A model generated the notes under the pieces. It was not told the DNA's origin, made no database searches, and saw nothing but the letters and a program-made list of their open reading frames with translations. This document shows, piece after piece, positions 1 to 9,106 of a stretch of 9,106 nucleotides of DNA. Position 1 is the first letter of the stretch, and each line of letters begins with the position of its first letter. This stretch comes from a virus. Taxonomy: Duplodnaviria; Heunggongvirae; Uroviricota; Caudoviricetes. The stretch is from IMG/VR virus record IMGVR_UViG_642979322_000006; one strand, 5' to 3'. Both the position numbers and the translations under genes were made by a program.

Positions 1-173
1 TGTCAGTTATCATCTTCGGTTACGGTTATCGGCAGAACGCCCTGCCGCTGACAAGAGCTTATTTGCCTGACCAATCTACTCCACATGATAGATAACTATC
101 ATTTATAACATTTCATTGATTAGTCTTTATTTTTCACTGCGTTACAAATAACAACCCCGTCAAAAACAGCGAA

Positions 174-197
174 ATTAACTACACCATTAACTACACC
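174..197. repeat. Perfect tandem direct repeat, 2 x 12 bp (ATTAACTACACC)
   Basis: Read directly: 174-185 and 186-197 are identical. Confidence 0.85.
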
Positions 198-203
198 GTT
201 TCA

Positions 204-230
204 CGAACAATATCGAACAACCACGAACAA
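204..230. repeat. Three 10-bp-phased copies of CGAACAA
   Basis: CGAACAA at 204-210, 214-220 and 224-230, a related TCAACAC at 234-240. Helical phasing suggests protein-binding sites; function unknown. Confidence 0.7.
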
Positions 231-256
231 AGATCAACACGCTTTAACCGTTATCA

Positions 257-294
257 TTTTCCGGTTAAACGTTAATCAGGCTGGTGGGCTTTAC
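257..294. repeat. 38-bp perfect direct repeat, copy 1 (TTTTCCGGTTAAACGTTAATCAGGCTGGTGGGCTTTAC)
   Basis: Identical to 617-654. Copy 1 is preceded by an inverted repeat TTAACCG (245-251) / CGGTTAA (262-268). Confidence 0.9.
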
Positions 295-374
295 CTGTTC
301 GGTAGGTGTTATGATTATCGTAATACCCGTTAAAGGGGCCGAATACATCACCGGATTTAGGGGATGTTCCCTGC

Positions 375-413
375 CTCCTCAAATTGAGGATTGTGGAAGA
401 ATCAATGGGTTAG
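375..413. repeat. Imperfect internal repeat X1 (CTCCTCAAATTGAGG ... ATCAATGGGTTAG)
   Basis: Matches 483-521 in two conserved blocks (15 nt and 13 nt) around an 11-nt variable linker. Offset is exactly 108 bp. Contains a short hairpin CCTCA-AAT-TGAGG. Confidence 0.8.
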
Positions 414-482
414 TCTTACTTTCCCAACATCCCCCAATGGGGGTTTTCGAAACAATCAATAGCTTAGGCTTACTTCCCCGAT

Positions 483-521
483 CTCCTCAAATTGAGGTTG
501 CCGGAAATATCAATGGGTTAG
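483..521. repeat. Imperfect internal repeat X2
   Basis: Second copy of the 375-413 motif. Confidence 0.8.
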
Positions 522-575
522 GCCATAGTGCAATTTTGCACTCTGAAACAATATCAACCAGTTACCGCCGCATCC

Positions 576-597
576 CGATATGGGAATCCCCATATCG
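576..597. repeat. Hairpin H1 (9-bp stem CGATATGGG / CCCATATCG, 4-nt loop)
   Basis: Inverted repeat read directly. A related hairpin with similar flanks occurs at 692-717. Confidence 0.75.
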
Positions 598-616
598 AGA
601 TTGGATACCTGGCTTT

Positions 617-654
617 TTTTCCGGTTAAACGTTAATCAGGCTGGTGGGCTTTAC
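617..654. repeat. 38-bp perfect direct repeat, copy 2
   Basis: Identical to 257-294. Confidence 0.9.
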
Positions 655-691
655 ATACCCTTGATCACGGTAATGATGATTCAGGTGCTTA

Positions 692-717
692 CCCGATATG
701 GGGATCACCATATCGGG
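692..717. repeat. Hairpin H2 (10-bp stem CCCGATATGG / CCATATCGGG, 6-nt loop)
   Basis: Inverted repeat read directly; paralog of H1. Lies just downstream of the stop of the capsid-like gene on the minus strand but has no U-tract on either strand. Confidence 0.75.
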
Positions 718-733
718 ATAGATGCCGGAAAAA

Positions 734-3179: not shown

Positions 3180-3227
3180 TTTTATTTTTACCCTCGTGTT
3201 TAAAAAGTTTTAGGTTGTGGTGCACCT

Positions 3228-3452
3228 CCTCTACCTCTCTACCCAATCATCTTTCAGGTCAGTAATGGCGCGGCTTTCAGATGGGTAGAGGGCTTTCGTG
3301 GCCCTCTACCCATCCTCTACCCGCCCCTCACAAACGACCTTAATCATGGTGGAGGGTGTAGAGGGCTTTTATTTGCCTTCTACCTGCCCCTCTACCCACT
3401 TATCATATTGAATAATGTATATTTATTTTCTTTAGGTAGAAGAGGTAGAGGG
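3228..3452. repeat. Iteron array: putative replication origin
   Basis: About 10 copies of CTCTACC / GGTAGAG (extended GGGTAGAGGGCTTT) in both orientations: direct at 3229-3235, 3237-3243, 3304-3310, 3315-3321, 3378-3384 (1 mismatch), 3390-3396; inverted at 3284-3290, 3357-3363 (1 mismatch), 3435-3441 (1 mismatch), 3444-3450. AT-rich stretch at 3401-3434. Immediately 3' of the primase/helicase gene. Confidence 0.7.
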
Positions 3453-3465
3453 CTTTTGTCTAAAA

Positions 3466-5220
3466 TTATAAAAACGCGTCGCAATCATCAGTTGTAATTG
3501 CGTTGGTCTGCGTTACTCCCTTAACTCTCCGCGTAATATATTCATGTCCGTAAACTTTTGCCGCTGGCTTCATGGCCTTGCTGAACTCAGCCACGTTTAG
3601 CGGCTTGCTTCTTCCTGCGTATGCCATAAACGCCAGATAGACGCGGTAAAGGCTGTTTCTGGTCGTGTACTTCACGGAATCGCCACCGCCACCCATCATC
3701 AGGCCGCGTGCTTCCTCCAGAAAATTCAGGAACTGGCAAAACTCAATAACCGGATCTGTCTGTTGCTTTATCGCCAGTGCTTCATCACCATCGCGCTGTT
3801 CCAGGAGTAAAGCCCGTGCCTTTTCAGGGTCGGCAAAATTAGCCAGCAAGCGGCGGATAATTACGGGGATTTCTGCCGCTATCTTTTCCGGTAATTCCTT
3901 GTCTTTTTCGTCCTCCCTTACAATGTTGTCGAACCGGAAAATCACCCGACGGCGTGACACACCTCCGGCCCGCTCGGTGAATATCATCGGGTTGTTGTTG
4001 GTCGCCAGTACCACCGCCCTTATTACCGTCGTGAATCGCTTCTCATATTTCGGGTTAATTTCGACGGGGTCGCCGCCCGTGATTTTCTTGATGCCCGTTC
4101 CTTCGCCTGTATATTTCGGTTGGTCAGCCAGGACGATAAGACGACTCCCGACAACCTGCGCACGTCCACCAGCATCATCAAGCGATGTCATTTCAGCGCT
4201 TACCGTGTTCTGTTTCCCTGCCAGAAGGCTGGCTATGTGCGTGAATGTACTTTTACCGCTACCGCCGTCTCCGGTGGCCTCAATAAACATCTGCCAGTCG
4301 TACCGGTTCGCCATAATCATGTACAGCGCGGCACATATACGCATCATCTTGCGCGGGTCTTTTCCGGCTGCGTGATCAAGCCATTTGTGAAAGTTTGGCG
4401 CGTTGTCGCGAATGTTCTCCCCAGGTGCTGGTGGCGTGTACTCAATGCCGTTGTGCGTGGTGATCCAGTTCTCCGGCGTGTGCGGGGAAAATTCCCCCGT
4501 TTTCAGGTCAAGCGCACCATTGGCGAACGGCAGCAAATCGCCGGACGGCTCCCCCATTGGTTCGGCAATAACTTTTAACGCTTCAACGGCGTTATTGATC
4601 ACGCGTTTGCTGAAAGTGGCCCTGTGCTCTGAATAGATCGCCACCATTTCGCGGCTAAGTTCCATTGTGCTGACCGGACACCATAACCCGCAGCGCCATA
4701 CGTGAACGATTTCACTTTCAGGATGTACGCAAACGCCATCAAAGCGATCGGAAAGCAGCTGAGCGCGTTCACTGTCCGCCATCTGCGAAAGTTGCGCCTT
4801 TTGCTTTACCGGAAGCTCAACGACCAGACCTTCAGAAAGATTCTGGCGCTCACGGGCAAGATATTCGCGCCAGTTCTCCACCTTCTGACCGTGCATTCCT
4901 TCGGGGTAAAAATTTGCATCCTGTACACCTGCCGCCGCCAGCTTCTGACCAATCGCCTTTATCATTACTGGCGCAAGATATCCGGCCCTGAATATGCGTA
5001 CTGATTTTCGGCCTTCCGGCACAATTTGCAGCTTATCCAGTTCGGATAACTGCTGATCCCCAAGCCACACAGGAGGCTCATTATCTCTGGCTATACGCGC
5101 GTCATGTTCCTGCCACTGTTTTGCATGTGCCCACGCATCACTACCCGCGAAAATAATTACCTCTGTGTCTTTGTGTTTTATTCCGCGTGGTTGTTTTTTT
5201 AAGTTCGGTGCGCTTTTCAT
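3466..5220 (-). CDS. Replication primase/helicase, P4-alpha-like (primase domain plus SF3/D5-type NTPase)
   Basis: 584-aa ORF. Walker A GDGGSGKST (around plus 4240-4270) and Walker B-like RLIVLAD. GAGG 6 nt upstream of ATG 5220. Start overlaps the upstream gene's stop as ATGA. Confidence 0.9.
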   Translation of the reverse strand: MKSAPNLKKQPRGIKHKDTEVIIFAGSDAWAHAKQWQEHDARIARDNEPPVWLGDQQLSELDKLQIVPEGRKSVRIFRAGYLAPVMIKAIGQKLAAAGVQDANFYPEGMHGQKVENWREYLARERQNLSEGLVVELPVKQKAQLSQMADSERAQLLSDRFDGVCVHPESEIVHVWRCGLWCPVSTMELSREMVAIYSEHRATFSKRVINNAVEALKVIAEPMGEPSGDLLPFANGALDLKTGEFSPHTPENWITTHNGIEYTPPAPGENIRDNAPNFHKWLDHAAGKDPRKMMRICAALYMIMANRYDWQMFIEATGDGGSGKSTFTHIASLLAGKQNTVSAEMTSLDDAGGRAQVVGSRLIVLADQPKYTGEGTGIKKITGGDPVEINPKYEKRFTTVIRAVVLATNNNPMIFTERAGGVSRRRVIFRFDNIVREDEKDKELPEKIAAEIPVIIRRLLANFADPEKARALLLEQRDGDEALAIKQQTDPVIEFCQFLNFLEEARGLMMGGGGDSVKYTTRNSLYRVYLAFMAYAGRSKPLNVAEFSKAMKPAAKVYGHEYITRRVKGVTQTNAITTDDCDAFL

Positions 5221-6796: not shown

Positions 6797-7021
6797 TTAC
6801 ACTGCCTTACCTGAATTAATGCGATCCCGGCTTTTAACCCATTCCATAACCTCGGACAGCAGCCACCCTACAGAACGACCGCCCAGATTAAGACGTGACG
6901 GAAAGCGCCCTTTTTTCTCCAGTTCGTAGCGTGTAGTGCGGCACACTCCTGTTAACTTACGGCATTCATCCTCACGGATTACGCGATCTGATAGTGATTG
7001 AAATTGTGTATTTTGATTCAT
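6797..7021 (-). CDS. alpA: AlpA-family prophage transcriptional regulator (HTH, excisionase-like)
   Basis: 74-aa ORF. Motif RKLTGVCRTTRYELEKKGRFPSRLNLGGRSVGWLLSEVMEWVKSR matches the AlpA (Phage_AlpA) signature. Position downstream of int is typical. Confidence 0.88.
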   Translation of the reverse strand: MNQNTQFQSLSDRVIREDECRKLTGVCRTTRYELEKKGRFPSRLNLGGRSVGWLLSEVMEWVKSRDRINSGKAV

Positions 7022-7116: not shown

Positions 7117-7886
7117 TTTTTACGTTTTTGTTGAGATTCACGCCCCAAATACTTTTGCCATGTCTGCCAATGTGTTTTTGGAAATTCTATCCCTCTGGAT
7201 GCAGCTATAGAATCAATTAAATCTGCTATTTTAGGTAATGATTCCGTGTCCAGGTCTACATCACCCATTTCTGGAATAAGTTTAATTAAAGAGTAAATAA
7301 CCTCATTCCTTTTTGACGATGCTTTTGGGCTATCTTCTGTTATCTTCGGGAAGTCTCCCGTATTTTTTATATTATCTAAATCACTAGCCATCACACACAA
7401 ATAGTTAACATCAAATTCATAACCACCCTTACAAAAAACATACATGAGATTATCATCACCATACTTATTCGTAAGATGAGAACATTTTATATATTGTCTC
7501 ATGCTAAATTCGACATCAGCAAAAACATATGCCGGAGTATAATAAAACCCTGATAAGCTGCTAACATAATAACATTTGATAGAATTCCCTACAGGACCAA
7601 TAATGGCACTATCTAAAAATTCAGTGTCACCAGTTAAACCAACTGTAAAATTACTTCCAAAAACAGCAGATTCATCATTGAAAGGATATTTTATTAATTC
7701 TTCCTCATTACAACCATTGATAAAATGACATAATGAAAAATTGAATTTTTTAGCATCAATTTTTGGTATATATACAGAAATATTAAGAGCACCTATATAT
7801 GCGTAATGATAAAGATCTTTTATTGCACAGCCTAACTTTTCTGCCGCTTCAGGTAACGGATAATAGAGTCTTTTAGGTAATTTCAT
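7113..7886 (-). CDS. Orphan hypothetical protein (257 aa), AT-rich cargo gene between int and alpA
   Basis: ORF from track. ATG 7886 overlaps the int stop as ATGA; AAGGTGG 4 nt upstream. Visibly lower GC than flanking genes. Rich in Y/F/N/K/C, acidic helical C-terminal region, no motif I can assign. Confidence 0.75.
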   Translation of the reverse strand: MKLPKRLYYPLPEAAEKLGCAIKDLYHYAYIGALNISVYIPKIDAKKFNFSLCHFINGCNEEELIKYPFNDESAVFGSNFTVGLTGDTEFLDSAIIGPVGNSIKCYYVSSLSGFYYTPAYVFADVEFSMRQYIKCSHLTNKYGDDNLMYVFCKGGYEFDVNYLCVMASDLDNIKNTGDFPKITEDSPKASSKRNEVIYSLIKLIPEMGDVDLDTESLPKIADLIDSIAASRGIEFPKTHWQTWQKYLGRESQQKRKK

Positions 7887-9106
7887 TTGGCCACCTTCAG
7901 CATAACAATATTTTCATGATTTCCAGCCAGCACATCGAGACGCTCAACCCATAGATTAAGAGCGTCACGTTTTGCATCAAGATAACGGGAGTGATTATAG
8001 ACTCGTTGCATTCCTGGCAACTGGTGCGCGGTAAGCTGCTCCACAACGTGCGGTTCCACGCCTAAATCGTTCAGCATCGTTGTAAACGTGTGCCGGATGT
8101 CGTGCAACGTCCAGGGGGCTTGATTAATGCGTCTGTGTGCCGTTCTTCCGTACTCTGATACGGATGATTGCCCTTTCAGTTCTCCGAGCAATAATCCCGT
8201 GTGCCTGTTCTGCTCCACCAGCTTCATGACAAACGGCAAGATCGCTTCCGGTATTGGCCTGAATATTGCTACCTTCGTTTTGCTGTGTTCTTTCGGCACG
8301 GTCCAGAGCATTTCTTTAAAATCCCATTCCTGGACCTCAGAGCGTCTTAGCTCAGTGGTACGACATCCGAAGACAATCAGGAGGCGAATCAGGGCGCTGT
8401 AGTACGGTGGGTAAATTTTTTCATCAAGGGCGCGTAGTAATTCCCCAAGCTCCTTGTTTGTTAGTACGCGCTCGCTTATTTCTGCTTTTTTCCCAACATC
8501 ACCGACAACCATATCATCAAGAACGTTGCTGATTGCGTATCGTCGTTTTCGGCAGTACTTAAGCGCCTGTTTGCATACCTGTAGCAAAAATCCGGCTGAT
8601 ACCGGATTACGCTTAGCAAGCTGGTCAAAACAGGCCAGCCAGTGGCGTAGCTCGCATTTTTCCAGTGGCATAGCGCCAATCTGGCTAATTATGTGTTTAT
8701 TGATCCGGCTTTTCAGTGATTCGTAGTCAGTGCGCTTTTCCTTTGCGTACGATTCAAGCCAGTAAGTGAGCGCTTCCTTAACCGTCACGGGGGCTAACGC
8801 GTCCTGTACAGCATGATTAAGTTCATAGCGCGGATTTTTCCCCTCAGCCAGCCAGGCGCGACACTGTGCCGCTTTTTCCCTGGCAGCTTTCAGGCTCAGA
8901 TCGGGATAATTGCCCAGCCTCAGACGTTCCGGTGATATCTGCCTACCAGTTCCGGCCCTGTAAGTGAAATACCAGGTTAACAGGCCATTGGTTGAATGCC
9001 TTACGCTAAGGTTGCCACCATCATTAAAAAAGGTGTTTTTTGTGGTTGGTGATCCGCTTAATTTTCGTAAAAGAGTGTCGCTAAGTCTATGAATTGCCCT
9101 GCTCAT
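7883..9106 (-). CDS. int: Tyrosine site-specific integrase (P4-type)
   Basis: 407-aa ORF. N-terminal region typical of P4-like integrases (FNDGGNLSVRHSTNGLLTWYFTYR...LGNYPDLSLKAAREKA). C-terminal catalytic region with HDIRHTF and RVYNHSRYLD (catalytic Tyr). ATG is at 9104-9106, so upstream signals are outside the window and the true start could lie beyond the edge. Confidence 0.92.
   Translation of the reverse strand: MSRAIHRLSDTLLRKLSGSPTTKNTFFNDGGNLSVRHSTNGLLTWYFTYRAGTGRQISPERLRLGNYPDLSLKAAREKAAQCRAWLAEGKNPRYELNHAVQDALAPVTVKEALTYWLESYAKEKRTDYESLKSRINKHIISQIGAMPLEKCELRHWLACFDQLAKRNPVSAGFLLQVCKQALKYCRKRRYAISNVLDDMVVGDVGKKAEISERVLTNKELGELLRALDEKIYPPYYSALIRLLIVFGCRTTELRRSEVQEWDFKEMLWTVPKEHSKTKVAIFRPIPEAILPFVMKLVEQNRHTGLLLGELKGQSSVSEYGRTAHRRINQAPWTLHDIRHTFTTMLNDLGVEPHVVEQLTAHQLPGMQRVYNHSRYLDAKRDALNLWVERLDVLAGNHENIVMLKVAK

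Follow-up and report, generated by a model that had tools for sequence, protein, structure and literature searches.

Phage-inducible chromosomal islands (PICIs) in E. coli include the EcCICFT073 type, which has two cos sites (PMC6092414), and a capsid-forming type. Much has yet to be worked out about how such Gram-negative PICIs detect their helpers and turn them to their own ends, and in the 2018 description of a Gram-negative PICI the phage-encoded activator was still unidentified. The sites for integration host factor (IHF) in phage lambda (cosB I1 and attP H1, H2, and H′) match the consensus WATCAANNNNTTR exactly, are A/T-rich on the 5′ side, and lie in a non-coding end of the element near the attachment site (att). 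RIB and RIP elements, which are bacterial interspersed mosaic elements (BIMEs) of E. coli, join palindromic repeats to an IHF consensus at the 3′ end of a transcription unit. On rolling-circle and linear replicons in which Chi acts as a RecBCD attenuator, the exact octamer is conserved and the whole element is enriched in Chi. Finally, the roi and rha genes of lambdoid phages (Roi of HK022, Rha of phi80 and P22) contain an internal stretch in which a palindrome is followed by a gap and a box. Here we describe positions 245–730 of the IMG/VR virus record IMGVR_UViG_642979322_000006, a stretch of 9,106 nucleotides that we call the window, and we find that a PICI-type phage satellite of E. coli O157:H7, 9.2 kb long, has this region as its distal, non-coding tail and that the tail resembles each of these systems in part.

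The same tail, consisting of an end core, a palindrome, an array of modules, and usually a gene for a 93-aa protein, is found in EcCICFT073-type and capsid-forming E. coli PICIs; some of the satellites that end in it have two lambda-type cos sites, and some have a full HK97-type capsid module. The island in the window has neither, and it differs from those PICIs in its Terminase_2 small terminase, its truncated capsid-like gene, the loss of the 93-aa gene, and the duplication of the core. Its IHF consensus matches share with the lambda sites the properties listed above, and in relatives they also lie near cos, as in lambda. Unlike the lambda sites, those of the window's satellite form a tandem set of four that all face the same way, and each has a palindrome as its partner; they are 270–470 bp from the att core (beyond the usual arm) and are not accompanied by cosN. 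Compared with RIB/RIP, the modules lack (by eye) what we take to be the repetitive extragenic palindromic (REP) consensus, have one short palindrome per box instead of two inverted REPs flanking it, and are confined to satellites and phage genes rather than dispersed over the chromosome. The Chi octamers of the tail, unlike a simple attenuator Chi, are embedded in a 38–70-bp core with dyads and a T-run, and across the element they are equally frequent on both strands. The roi/rha stretch shares with the modules its sequence (91–94% identity for three module types), its palindrome-gap-box layout, and its orientation, and the roi palindrome types recur in the satellites; a phage has one copy, which is translated and is not always a perfect palindrome, whereas in satellites the stretch is non-coding, tandem, of mixed alleles, and perfectly symmetric. 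We class the tail as a cis-acting repeat array on a mobile element, unusual in its assembly from a cis element hidden in helper regulator genes. The literature that we searched contains no account of this tail, of its array of modules, or of its enrichment in Chi.

Bases 1–1,000 of the window are 100% identical to E. coli O157:H7 chromosomes, and in strain M1300706002 the clpS start codon directly precedes the window start. Comparison with K-12, in which the site is empty, and with the other island end placed the insertion approximately 90 bp upstream of the clpS start codon and the chromosome/island junction at approximately position 102; the insertion parts clpS-clpA from their former upstream neighbors. 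A prediction made earlier from the letters of this DNA alone (the original prediction) had described a gene-free, highly structured repeat element, and had allowed that it might prove to be ordinary chromosomal flank. The att core at 92–102 places the region inside the island, where the tail sits between the arm-type repeats (174–239) and the stop codon of the last gene (734). In agreement with the gene-free description, there is no RefSeq gene between clpS and the capsid-like gene. The individual features of that prediction (the 38-bp repeats, a pair of motifs 108 bp apart, a hairpin at 431–443, the hairpins H1 and H2, and a GTG-initiated open reading frame [ORF]) were all recovered, and to these we add a Chi octamer in each 38-mer, an exact IHF consensus at the end of each motif, and the match of the repeat units to phage roi genes.

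The palindrome CCTCA-AAT-TGAGG occurs at 377–389 and 485–497, 108 bp apart, as had been predicted for a two-copy bipartite motif, but this pair is part of a larger array of four units. A repeat finder and Tandem Repeats Finder (TRF) identified three units with a 54-bp period (375–413, 429–467, and 483–521), of which the middle one contains CCCCC-AAT-GGGGG at 431–443, and alignment of the tails revealed a fourth, more diverged unit at 523–566. The palindromes in the window are perfect, 13–16 bp long, and located one helical turn before the IHF consensus. The exact consensus is found four times in 9,106 bp, where 0.55 matches are expected, and all four matches lie at 400–564, in one orientation and with spacings of 54, 54, and 44 bp. 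The conserved part of the array alternates with variable palindromes in place of spacers, and the units (44–54 bp) are only 69–85% alike, which agrees with the earlier judgment that this is not a CRISPR array.

We scanned IMG/VR for relatives and obtained approximately 45 further loci, representing 34 distinct tails. Across these tails the unit layout is a perfect palindrome that varies from unit to unit, a 10–11-nt gap, and a conserved box, ATCA(A/G)YNRGTTA(G/C) in the alignment of all tails. There are at least 11 palindrome types, including CCTCA/AAT, CCCCC/AAT, GCGCAA/TT, TTCGCC/GCT, CAGCC/GTT, and TTCCACA/GTC. A perfect stem of at least 5 bp at 8–13 nt (mode 10–11) from the box was present in 43 of the 56 distinct modules, compared with 1.3 in shuffles, and one palindrome varied among tails in a compensated manner (AGCGCA..TGCGCT versus AGCTCA..TGAGCT). 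Perfect palindromes are therefore maintained in a non-coding context.

Sequence comparison indicates that the modules are non-coding copies of one stretch of approximately 45 bp inside the Rha-type DNA-binding-domain coding region of roi/rha genes from lambdoid phages, which serve such satellites as helpers. In a BLAST search against phages, module 2 aligned with an internal part of roi from VT2-Sakai, other Stx phages, and HK629 (92% identity over 48 nt), module 1 aligned with the corresponding part of a roi-like gene from phage phi330 (94% identity over 49 nt), and a third module type matched roi of HK620, H-19B, and P27. Overall, identity was 91–94% over 35–49 contiguous nt and reached past the palindrome and the box. 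Roi has a Rha domain (PF09669) at its N terminus and a KilAC domain at its C terminus; the copied stretch encodes approximately residues 45–60 of the Rha domain, the codon positions are the same across the matches, and the frame of the window ORF is the Roi frame (PPMGVFETINSLGLL versus PPMVVFEKINNLGLL). Modules of the GCGCAATTTTGCGC type correspond to the RNFA...INEL stretch of canonical Rha genes. The satellite tails contain only this stretch of approximately 15–30 codons from a gene of approximately 730 bp, in several allelic types. The copying of modules from a Rha-domain coding stretch explains the "peptide repeat" of the 114-aa ORF, whose frame is open because modules 1–3 descend from coding sequence and which should carry no gene annotation.

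Within the phages, the roi palindrome differs by allele and tracks the putative recognition helix encoded a few codons upstream (80 roi loci, L144–L223, positions ~730–790): CCCCCAATGGTGG is found with KQSIERL, CCTGCATTGCAGG with KISIERL, and CCTCAA(A/T)TTGAGG with KRTIETL. The need to encode Val leaves the phage copy CCCCCAATGGTGG imperfect, whereas the non-coding satellite copies are all perfect (CCCCCAATGGGGG). The palindrome of HK620 is present once only in that phage, inside roi. In canonical Rha genes sampled by degenerate peptide patterns (L304–L383), 13 of 14 distinct sequences use CGCAATTTTGCG for RNFA, although the codons on either side vary. Synonymous sites in the RNFA stretch thus appear constrained, which hints at a cis-acting site, perhaps autoregulatory, within Rha-domain genes. 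Rha of phi80 and P22 and Roi of HK022 reportedly block lytic growth in IHF-deficient hosts, and we presume that Roi and IHF act at the copied stretch of roi. The palindrome within Rha-domain genes (with an IHF consensus in the roi class) bears on this old, unexplained IHF dependence of the Rha/Roi phenotypes.

The 38-mer TTTTCCGGTTAAACGTTAATCAGGCTGGTGGGCTTTAC is present in exactly two copies in the window (257–294 and 617–654), with none expected by chance. The original prediction treated these repeats as the boundaries of the element; they are instead two copies of a conserved satellite end core, in which a T-run and a TTAA(A)C/GTTAA dyad accompany a Chi octamer. The core is conserved among the 34 distinct satellite tails, and the 38-mer and the 33 bases that follow it recur at the same tail position beside att in satellites with quite different cargo. 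For example, one satellite with this tail (L004) is an island beside phoQ with a RepA helicase, capsid, decoration protein, and small terminase, and another (L005) resembles capsid-forming PICIs and carries an HK97 capsid, protease, portal, HNH, P27-type small terminase, and large terminase. Of 5,426 complete E. coli genomes, 774 (14%) contain the core (searched with a 78-base query), in every case without annotation, and a conserved tail in about one-seventh of complete genomes may bear on how Gram-negative PICIs deal with their helpers. There was no carrier of the 38-mer in the phage collection, and so the 38-mer is not a copy of a helper cos or pac site. A scan of species-representative genomes (596 Gb) with a 17-mer, which is too short a query for that amount of sequence, returned 81 matches, nearly all of them chance matches in unrelated phyla, and none passed the 38-mer similarity filter, E. 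coli and Shigella included.

The exact Chi octamer 5′-GCTGGTGG-3′ is present on the plus strand in both cores, and it is kept in the diverged core paralogues of other tails despite their differing flanks. The 9.1-kb window contains 10 Chi octamers, compared with 0.23 expected from shuffles, and the related satellites (34 stretches) contain 233 in 226 kb, or 1.03 per kb, equally on both strands. We take this density to be several times the E. coli chromosomal average, and it suggests a general strategy for evading RecBCD without a Gam-like inhibitor. Given the established polarity of Chi, the orientation of the core Chi fits RecBCD entry from the cos(+) end of related satellites.

A commoner version of the island is found in O157:H7 and other Shiga-toxin-producing strains (L008; NZ_CP039834.1, 1501–2745). 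Compared with bases 1–1,000 of the window, its tail is 245 bp longer in modules, has three Chi-bearing cores within 650 bp, and has a different module set, which indicates that the tail is modular and recombining and evolves by gain and loss of whole modules. The two 38-mers of the window reflect a partial duplication. Copy 2, together with the palindromes H1 and H2 (24–26 bp, 89% alike), belongs to the capsid-like/terminase island type, and copy 1 arrived with the array and a remnant of a lost gene end (559–571). The lost gene, absent from this island in intact form, is that for the 93-aa protein (phrog_1561), which most satellites encode beside the array (L005 6498–6779(−) and equivalents). 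For this conserved protein, E. coli and Shigella together contain more than 1,000 homologues that are nearly identical and all "hypothetical," and a search found no solved relative. The stop codon of its gene falls inside the last IHF-like box. We considered that the gene might be an antisense remnant of a Rha gene and rejected this because there is no similarity outside the modules.

We tentatively propose that the tail might be a DNA-level platform for host IHF and for Rha/Roi-type regulators of the helper, with Chi as a shield against RecBCD, a reading that we favor over its rivals and consider plausible but somewhat short of probable. We infer that the tail acts as double-stranded DNA, rather than as RNA or protein, from the equal folding of the two strands, the absence of an Rfam match, and the lack of conservation of the ORF. 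The modules would form a multi-site platform that binds host IHF, and the palindromes would bind Rha/Roi-type winged-helix regulators made by the helper phage, with different palindrome types serving different helper alleles. The satellite could in this way titrate or sense the helper regulators, the modules being decoys or sensors. The core Chi would stop RecBCD that enters from a nearby packaged or replicating DNA end and would make the tail a recombination hotspot, and such hotspot activity would explain the duplication and shuffling of cores and modules. The construction of the tail from pieces of helper regulator genes points to a concrete interaction among IHF, Roi/Rha, and the satellite. 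The original prediction had offered a cluster of protein-binding sites, pac or att-proximal, as one possibility; the four exact IHF consensus matches, the two Chi octamers, and the apparently operator-like palindromes at fixed distance favor such a cluster, and its pac version is weakened by the packaging features described below.

Several observations weigh against the platform proposal. The number of modules ranges from zero to seven in the 34 distinct tails, from which it follows that a satellite can complete its basic cycle with no array. A related PICI is open to induction and mobilization by phage lambda, which is not known to have a roi/rha gene; Roi/Rha thus cannot be the general inducer. 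In one module subclass of other satellites the box is degenerate (TTCAGCGAGTTAC). The association between palindrome type and recognition helix could be plain linkage, as the two are approximately 30 nt apart. The letters of the IHF consensus (ATC AAY NNN TTR) also encode I-N-x-L of the Rha domain, and the match could therefore be inherited rather than selected. The compensatory palindrome changes would fit RNA or cruciform hairpins as well as operators, and in 27 of 32 tails of relatives, whose sequences are not independent, the plus strand folds slightly better.

It is possible, if rather doubtful, that satellites keep a tandem "library" of operator-like palindrome/IHF modules taken from helper roi/rha, one type per helper allele, either as DNA decoys or sensors or as antisense RNA, in each case to capture or silence the Rha/Roi-type regulator. 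If true, such a library would add a new class to the known interactions between satellites and helpers, one that evolves as modules are gained and lost at a recombination hotspot driven by Chi.

The array could also be a non-functional relic: repeated exchange with helper roi/rha by recombination or gene conversion under the stimulus of Chi, or else the decay of a gene, would have left scars, which unequal crossing-over amplified. We consider this unlikely. The variable copy number, the whole-module indels that distinguish close relatives, the survival of reading-frame fossils (the 114-aa ORF included), the extreme Chi richness of the elements, and the gene-end remnant would all be expected of a relic. 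In contrast, a relic would not readily account for the recurrence of always the same ~45-bp stretch of the gene in several allelic types, for perfect palindromes at a fixed distance far more often than in shuffles, for the perfecting of those palindromes relative to the phage copy, or for the retention of the tail in 14% of complete E. coli genomes.

In P22 (sar) and P1 (c4), antirepressor genes are known to be under antisense control, and the tail could by analogy be an antisense RNA array, the 3′ untranslated end of a unidirectional minus-strand late transcript that silences the roi/rha mRNAs of several helper alleles by complementarity. The modules are opposite in strand to the adjacent satellite genes in all tails examined and would be antisense to roi in a read-through transcript; terminator prediction yields nothing on the minus strand from the last gene as far as the array; and the contiguous identity to roi extends beyond what the palindrome and box comprise. 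We nevertheless regard this explanation as improbable. Inheritance of the entire tail as a single block can account for the shared orientation of the modules, the satellite copies gain palindrome symmetry and lose complementarity to the phage gene, and the stems are short with loops of 3–4 nt, which are poor for loop-loop pairing. In addition, the array has no Rfam relative, and the transcript is a predicted one.

Equally improbable, in our view, is that the tail is part of the packaging or end-handling architecture, an IHF-bent, Chi-guarded region by the packaging site that would help terminase or shield a free end. IHF sites belong to lambda cosB. Most related satellites (L004, L091, L093, L095, L119, L137, and others) have two inverted lambda-type cosN sites (GGGCGGCGACCT) with conserved cosQ-side flanks, which identifies them as the EcCICFT073 type (PMC6092414). 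These sites are located +570 to +1780 from the 38-mer (rightward of the core by 0.6–1.8 kb), immediately past the 93-aa gene, and bracket one gene; the array lies between core and cos, and the core Chi would be oriented for recognition by RecBCD entering from the cos end. This arrangement does not extend to the island in the window, in which the sole match to cosN within two mismatches has one mismatch, lies inside the primase gene, and is at chance level. Instead, (A)AAGTTAC repeats at 2079–2355 (five scanned matches, compared with 0.39 expected) form a candidate pac site or small-terminase binding array of the island; two of them lie just upstream of the point where terS starts, three or more lie within this gene, and the sequence shows further copies. 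The same tail accompanies three unrelated small-terminase types, some satellites have no module at all, and the 38-mer is in no helper phage of the phage collection. We also rejected the idea that the H palindrome is an analogue of cosN, with the core resembling the lambda cosN-R3 spacer (TTTTCCGGTT[T]AA), because the similarity is short and the Chi polarity is contrary. A role for 245–730 as the replication origin was likewise discarded: iterons, GGTAGAGGG(C) in both orientations, flank an AT-rich stretch at 3224–3460, directly downstream of the primase-helicase gene, and this is the probable origin. A chance Rfam match to a miRNA falls in the same stretch.

The original prediction also raised a structured non-coding RNA. 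Both strands do fold better than dinucleotide shuffles (z = −4.7 for the plus strand and −5.0 for the minus strand, folded as single strands), which upholds the structured part of that suggestion, but the two strands of the window fold equally. An Rfam 15 covariance scan of the whole window found nothing in 245–730 even at E ≤ 1, and a tRNA/tmRNA scan found none. There was no terminator-like site on either strand in 1–1000, as predicted, and the promoter scan found nothing above chance. A plus-strand structured RNA could start from a weak promoter at the end of the 38-mer (TTTAC[C/A], 16–17 nt, and a −10-like hexamer). This −35-like/−10-like arrangement recurs after all three core variants, one instance of which was scored: the match at 650–677, spanning the core end and the type b segment, is the only promoter-like match, and shuffles gave 2.2. 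One conserved hairpin of the relatives has mismatches that are G-T rather than A-C on the plus strand, and there is the slight preference for plus-strand folding in 27 of the 32 tails. An RNA does not predict the IHF consensus, and we judge this explanation very unlikely.

A small repeat-containing protein translated from the GTG ORF is scarcely credible: the frame is open for 114 codons across three in-phase modules, but it has no match in Pfam at E ≤ 1 or in PHROGs at E ≤ 0.01, does not match the Rha profile (PF09669; the likeness to Rha is confined to a stretch of 15–30 aa and reflects a coding fossil), starts and stops within the repeated 38-mers, gives products of 6–115 aa and unrelated sequence from the same start in homologous tails, and has by inspection no usable ribosome-binding site at the proper distance from the GTG; module 4 has a stop in its own ancestral frame.

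Table 1. Features of the satellite in the 9,106-nucleotide window (a dot marks features without a strand)
Feature	Position	Strand	Basis or remark
att core ATAACTATCAT; boundary between clpS upstream region and island	92–102	.	K-12 comparison and other island end (L001 ~21281–21293)
Putative integrase arm-type repeats: ATTAACTACACC twice (174–197), CGAACAA three times (204–230)	174–239	+	TRF
Dyad, 8 bp, TTTAACCG / CGGTTAAA, overlapping start of 38-mer copy 1	243–269	.	Read from sequence
End core copy 1 (38-mer): T-run, TTAAACGTTAA near-dyad, Chi GCTGGTGG at 280–287	257–294	+	Exact repeat; Chi scan
GTG ORF, 114 aa, peptide repeat PPQIEDCGRINGL / PPMGVFETINSLGL / SPQIEVAGNINGL; not a gene	284–628	+	ORF list and translation
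Post-core segment "type a" CTGTTCGGTAGGTGTTATGATTATCGTAATACC, imperfect dyad	295–327	+	Identical in many satellites (L004, L005, others)
Module 1: palindrome CCTCAAATTGAGG (377–389), 10-nt gap, IHF consensus AATCAATGGGTTA (400–412)	372–413	+	Repeat, alignment, IHF scan
Module 2: palindrome CCCCCAATGGGGG (431–443), 11-nt gap, IHF consensus AATCAATAGCTTA (454–466)	426–467	+	Repeat, alignment, IHF scan
Module 3: palindrome CCTCAAATTGAGG (485–497), 11-nt gap, IHF consensus TATCAATGGGTTA (508–520)	480–521	+	Repeat, alignment, IHF scan
Module 4: palindrome AGTGCAATTTTGCACT (527–542), 10-nt gap, IHF consensus TATCAACCAGTTA (552–564), in-frame stop	523–566	+	Canonical Rha "RNFA...INEL" type; alignment, IHF scan
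Remnant of 3′ end of 93-aa satellite gene (phrog_1561), CAGTTACCGCCGC	559–571	−	Alignment with L004, L005, and other tails with intact gene
Palindrome H1 CCCGATATGGGAATCCCCATATCG	574–597	.	9–10-bp stem; precedes core in most satellites
End core copy 2 (38-mer), T-run 614–620 before it, Chi 640–647	617–654	+	Exact repeat; Chi scan
Alternative post-core segment "type b" ATACCCTTGATCACGGTAATGATGATTCAGGTGCTTA	655–691	+	Tail comparison
Palindrome H2 CCCGATATGGGGATCACCATATCGGG, 16 nt from capsid-like gene stop	692–717	.	9–10-bp stem
Truncated HK97-type capsid homologue, 310 aa	734–1666	−	Pfam/PHROGs; Phage_capsid profile matched from position 47 of 280
Terminase_2 small terminase (terS)	1820–2308	−	Pfam/PHROGs
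D5_N/DUF5906/Pox_D5 primase-helicase	3466–5220	−	Pfam/PHROGs
AlpA (PF05930)	6797–7021		Pfam/PHROGs
Tyrosine integrase (int)	7883–9106	−	Annotation
Chi octamers	280, 640, 4427, 5286, 5582, 6211	+	Octamer scan
Chi octamers	1477, 4166, 6663, 8215	−	Octamer scan

The gene content of the island is that of a PICI-type satellite. A tyrosine integrase lies at one end, and the att core recurs beyond int, giving flanking att direct repeats at a site that is empty in K-12; arm-type motifs also adjoin int at the other island end (L001 21107–21293) and are found in related satellites. The island is 9.2 kb in length, has AlpA and its own primase and iterons, and its only virion genes are those for the small terminase and the capsid-like protein. 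All but one of the genes are on the minus strand in the annotation of strain M1300706002, which lists a capsid protein, a small terminase, several hypotheticals, a DUF5906 protein, DUF4222, an Icd-like protein, an HTH regulator, and a tyrosine integrase. The truncated capsid-like gene presumably resembles capsid-size-redirecting homologues such as Ccm of SaPIbov5. A related satellite on an 11,098-bp metagenome contig (L109, IMGVR_UViG_3300045988_152974) has a 119-bp terminal overlap, which indicates that it was assembled as a circle or concatemer and is consistent with an excised form.

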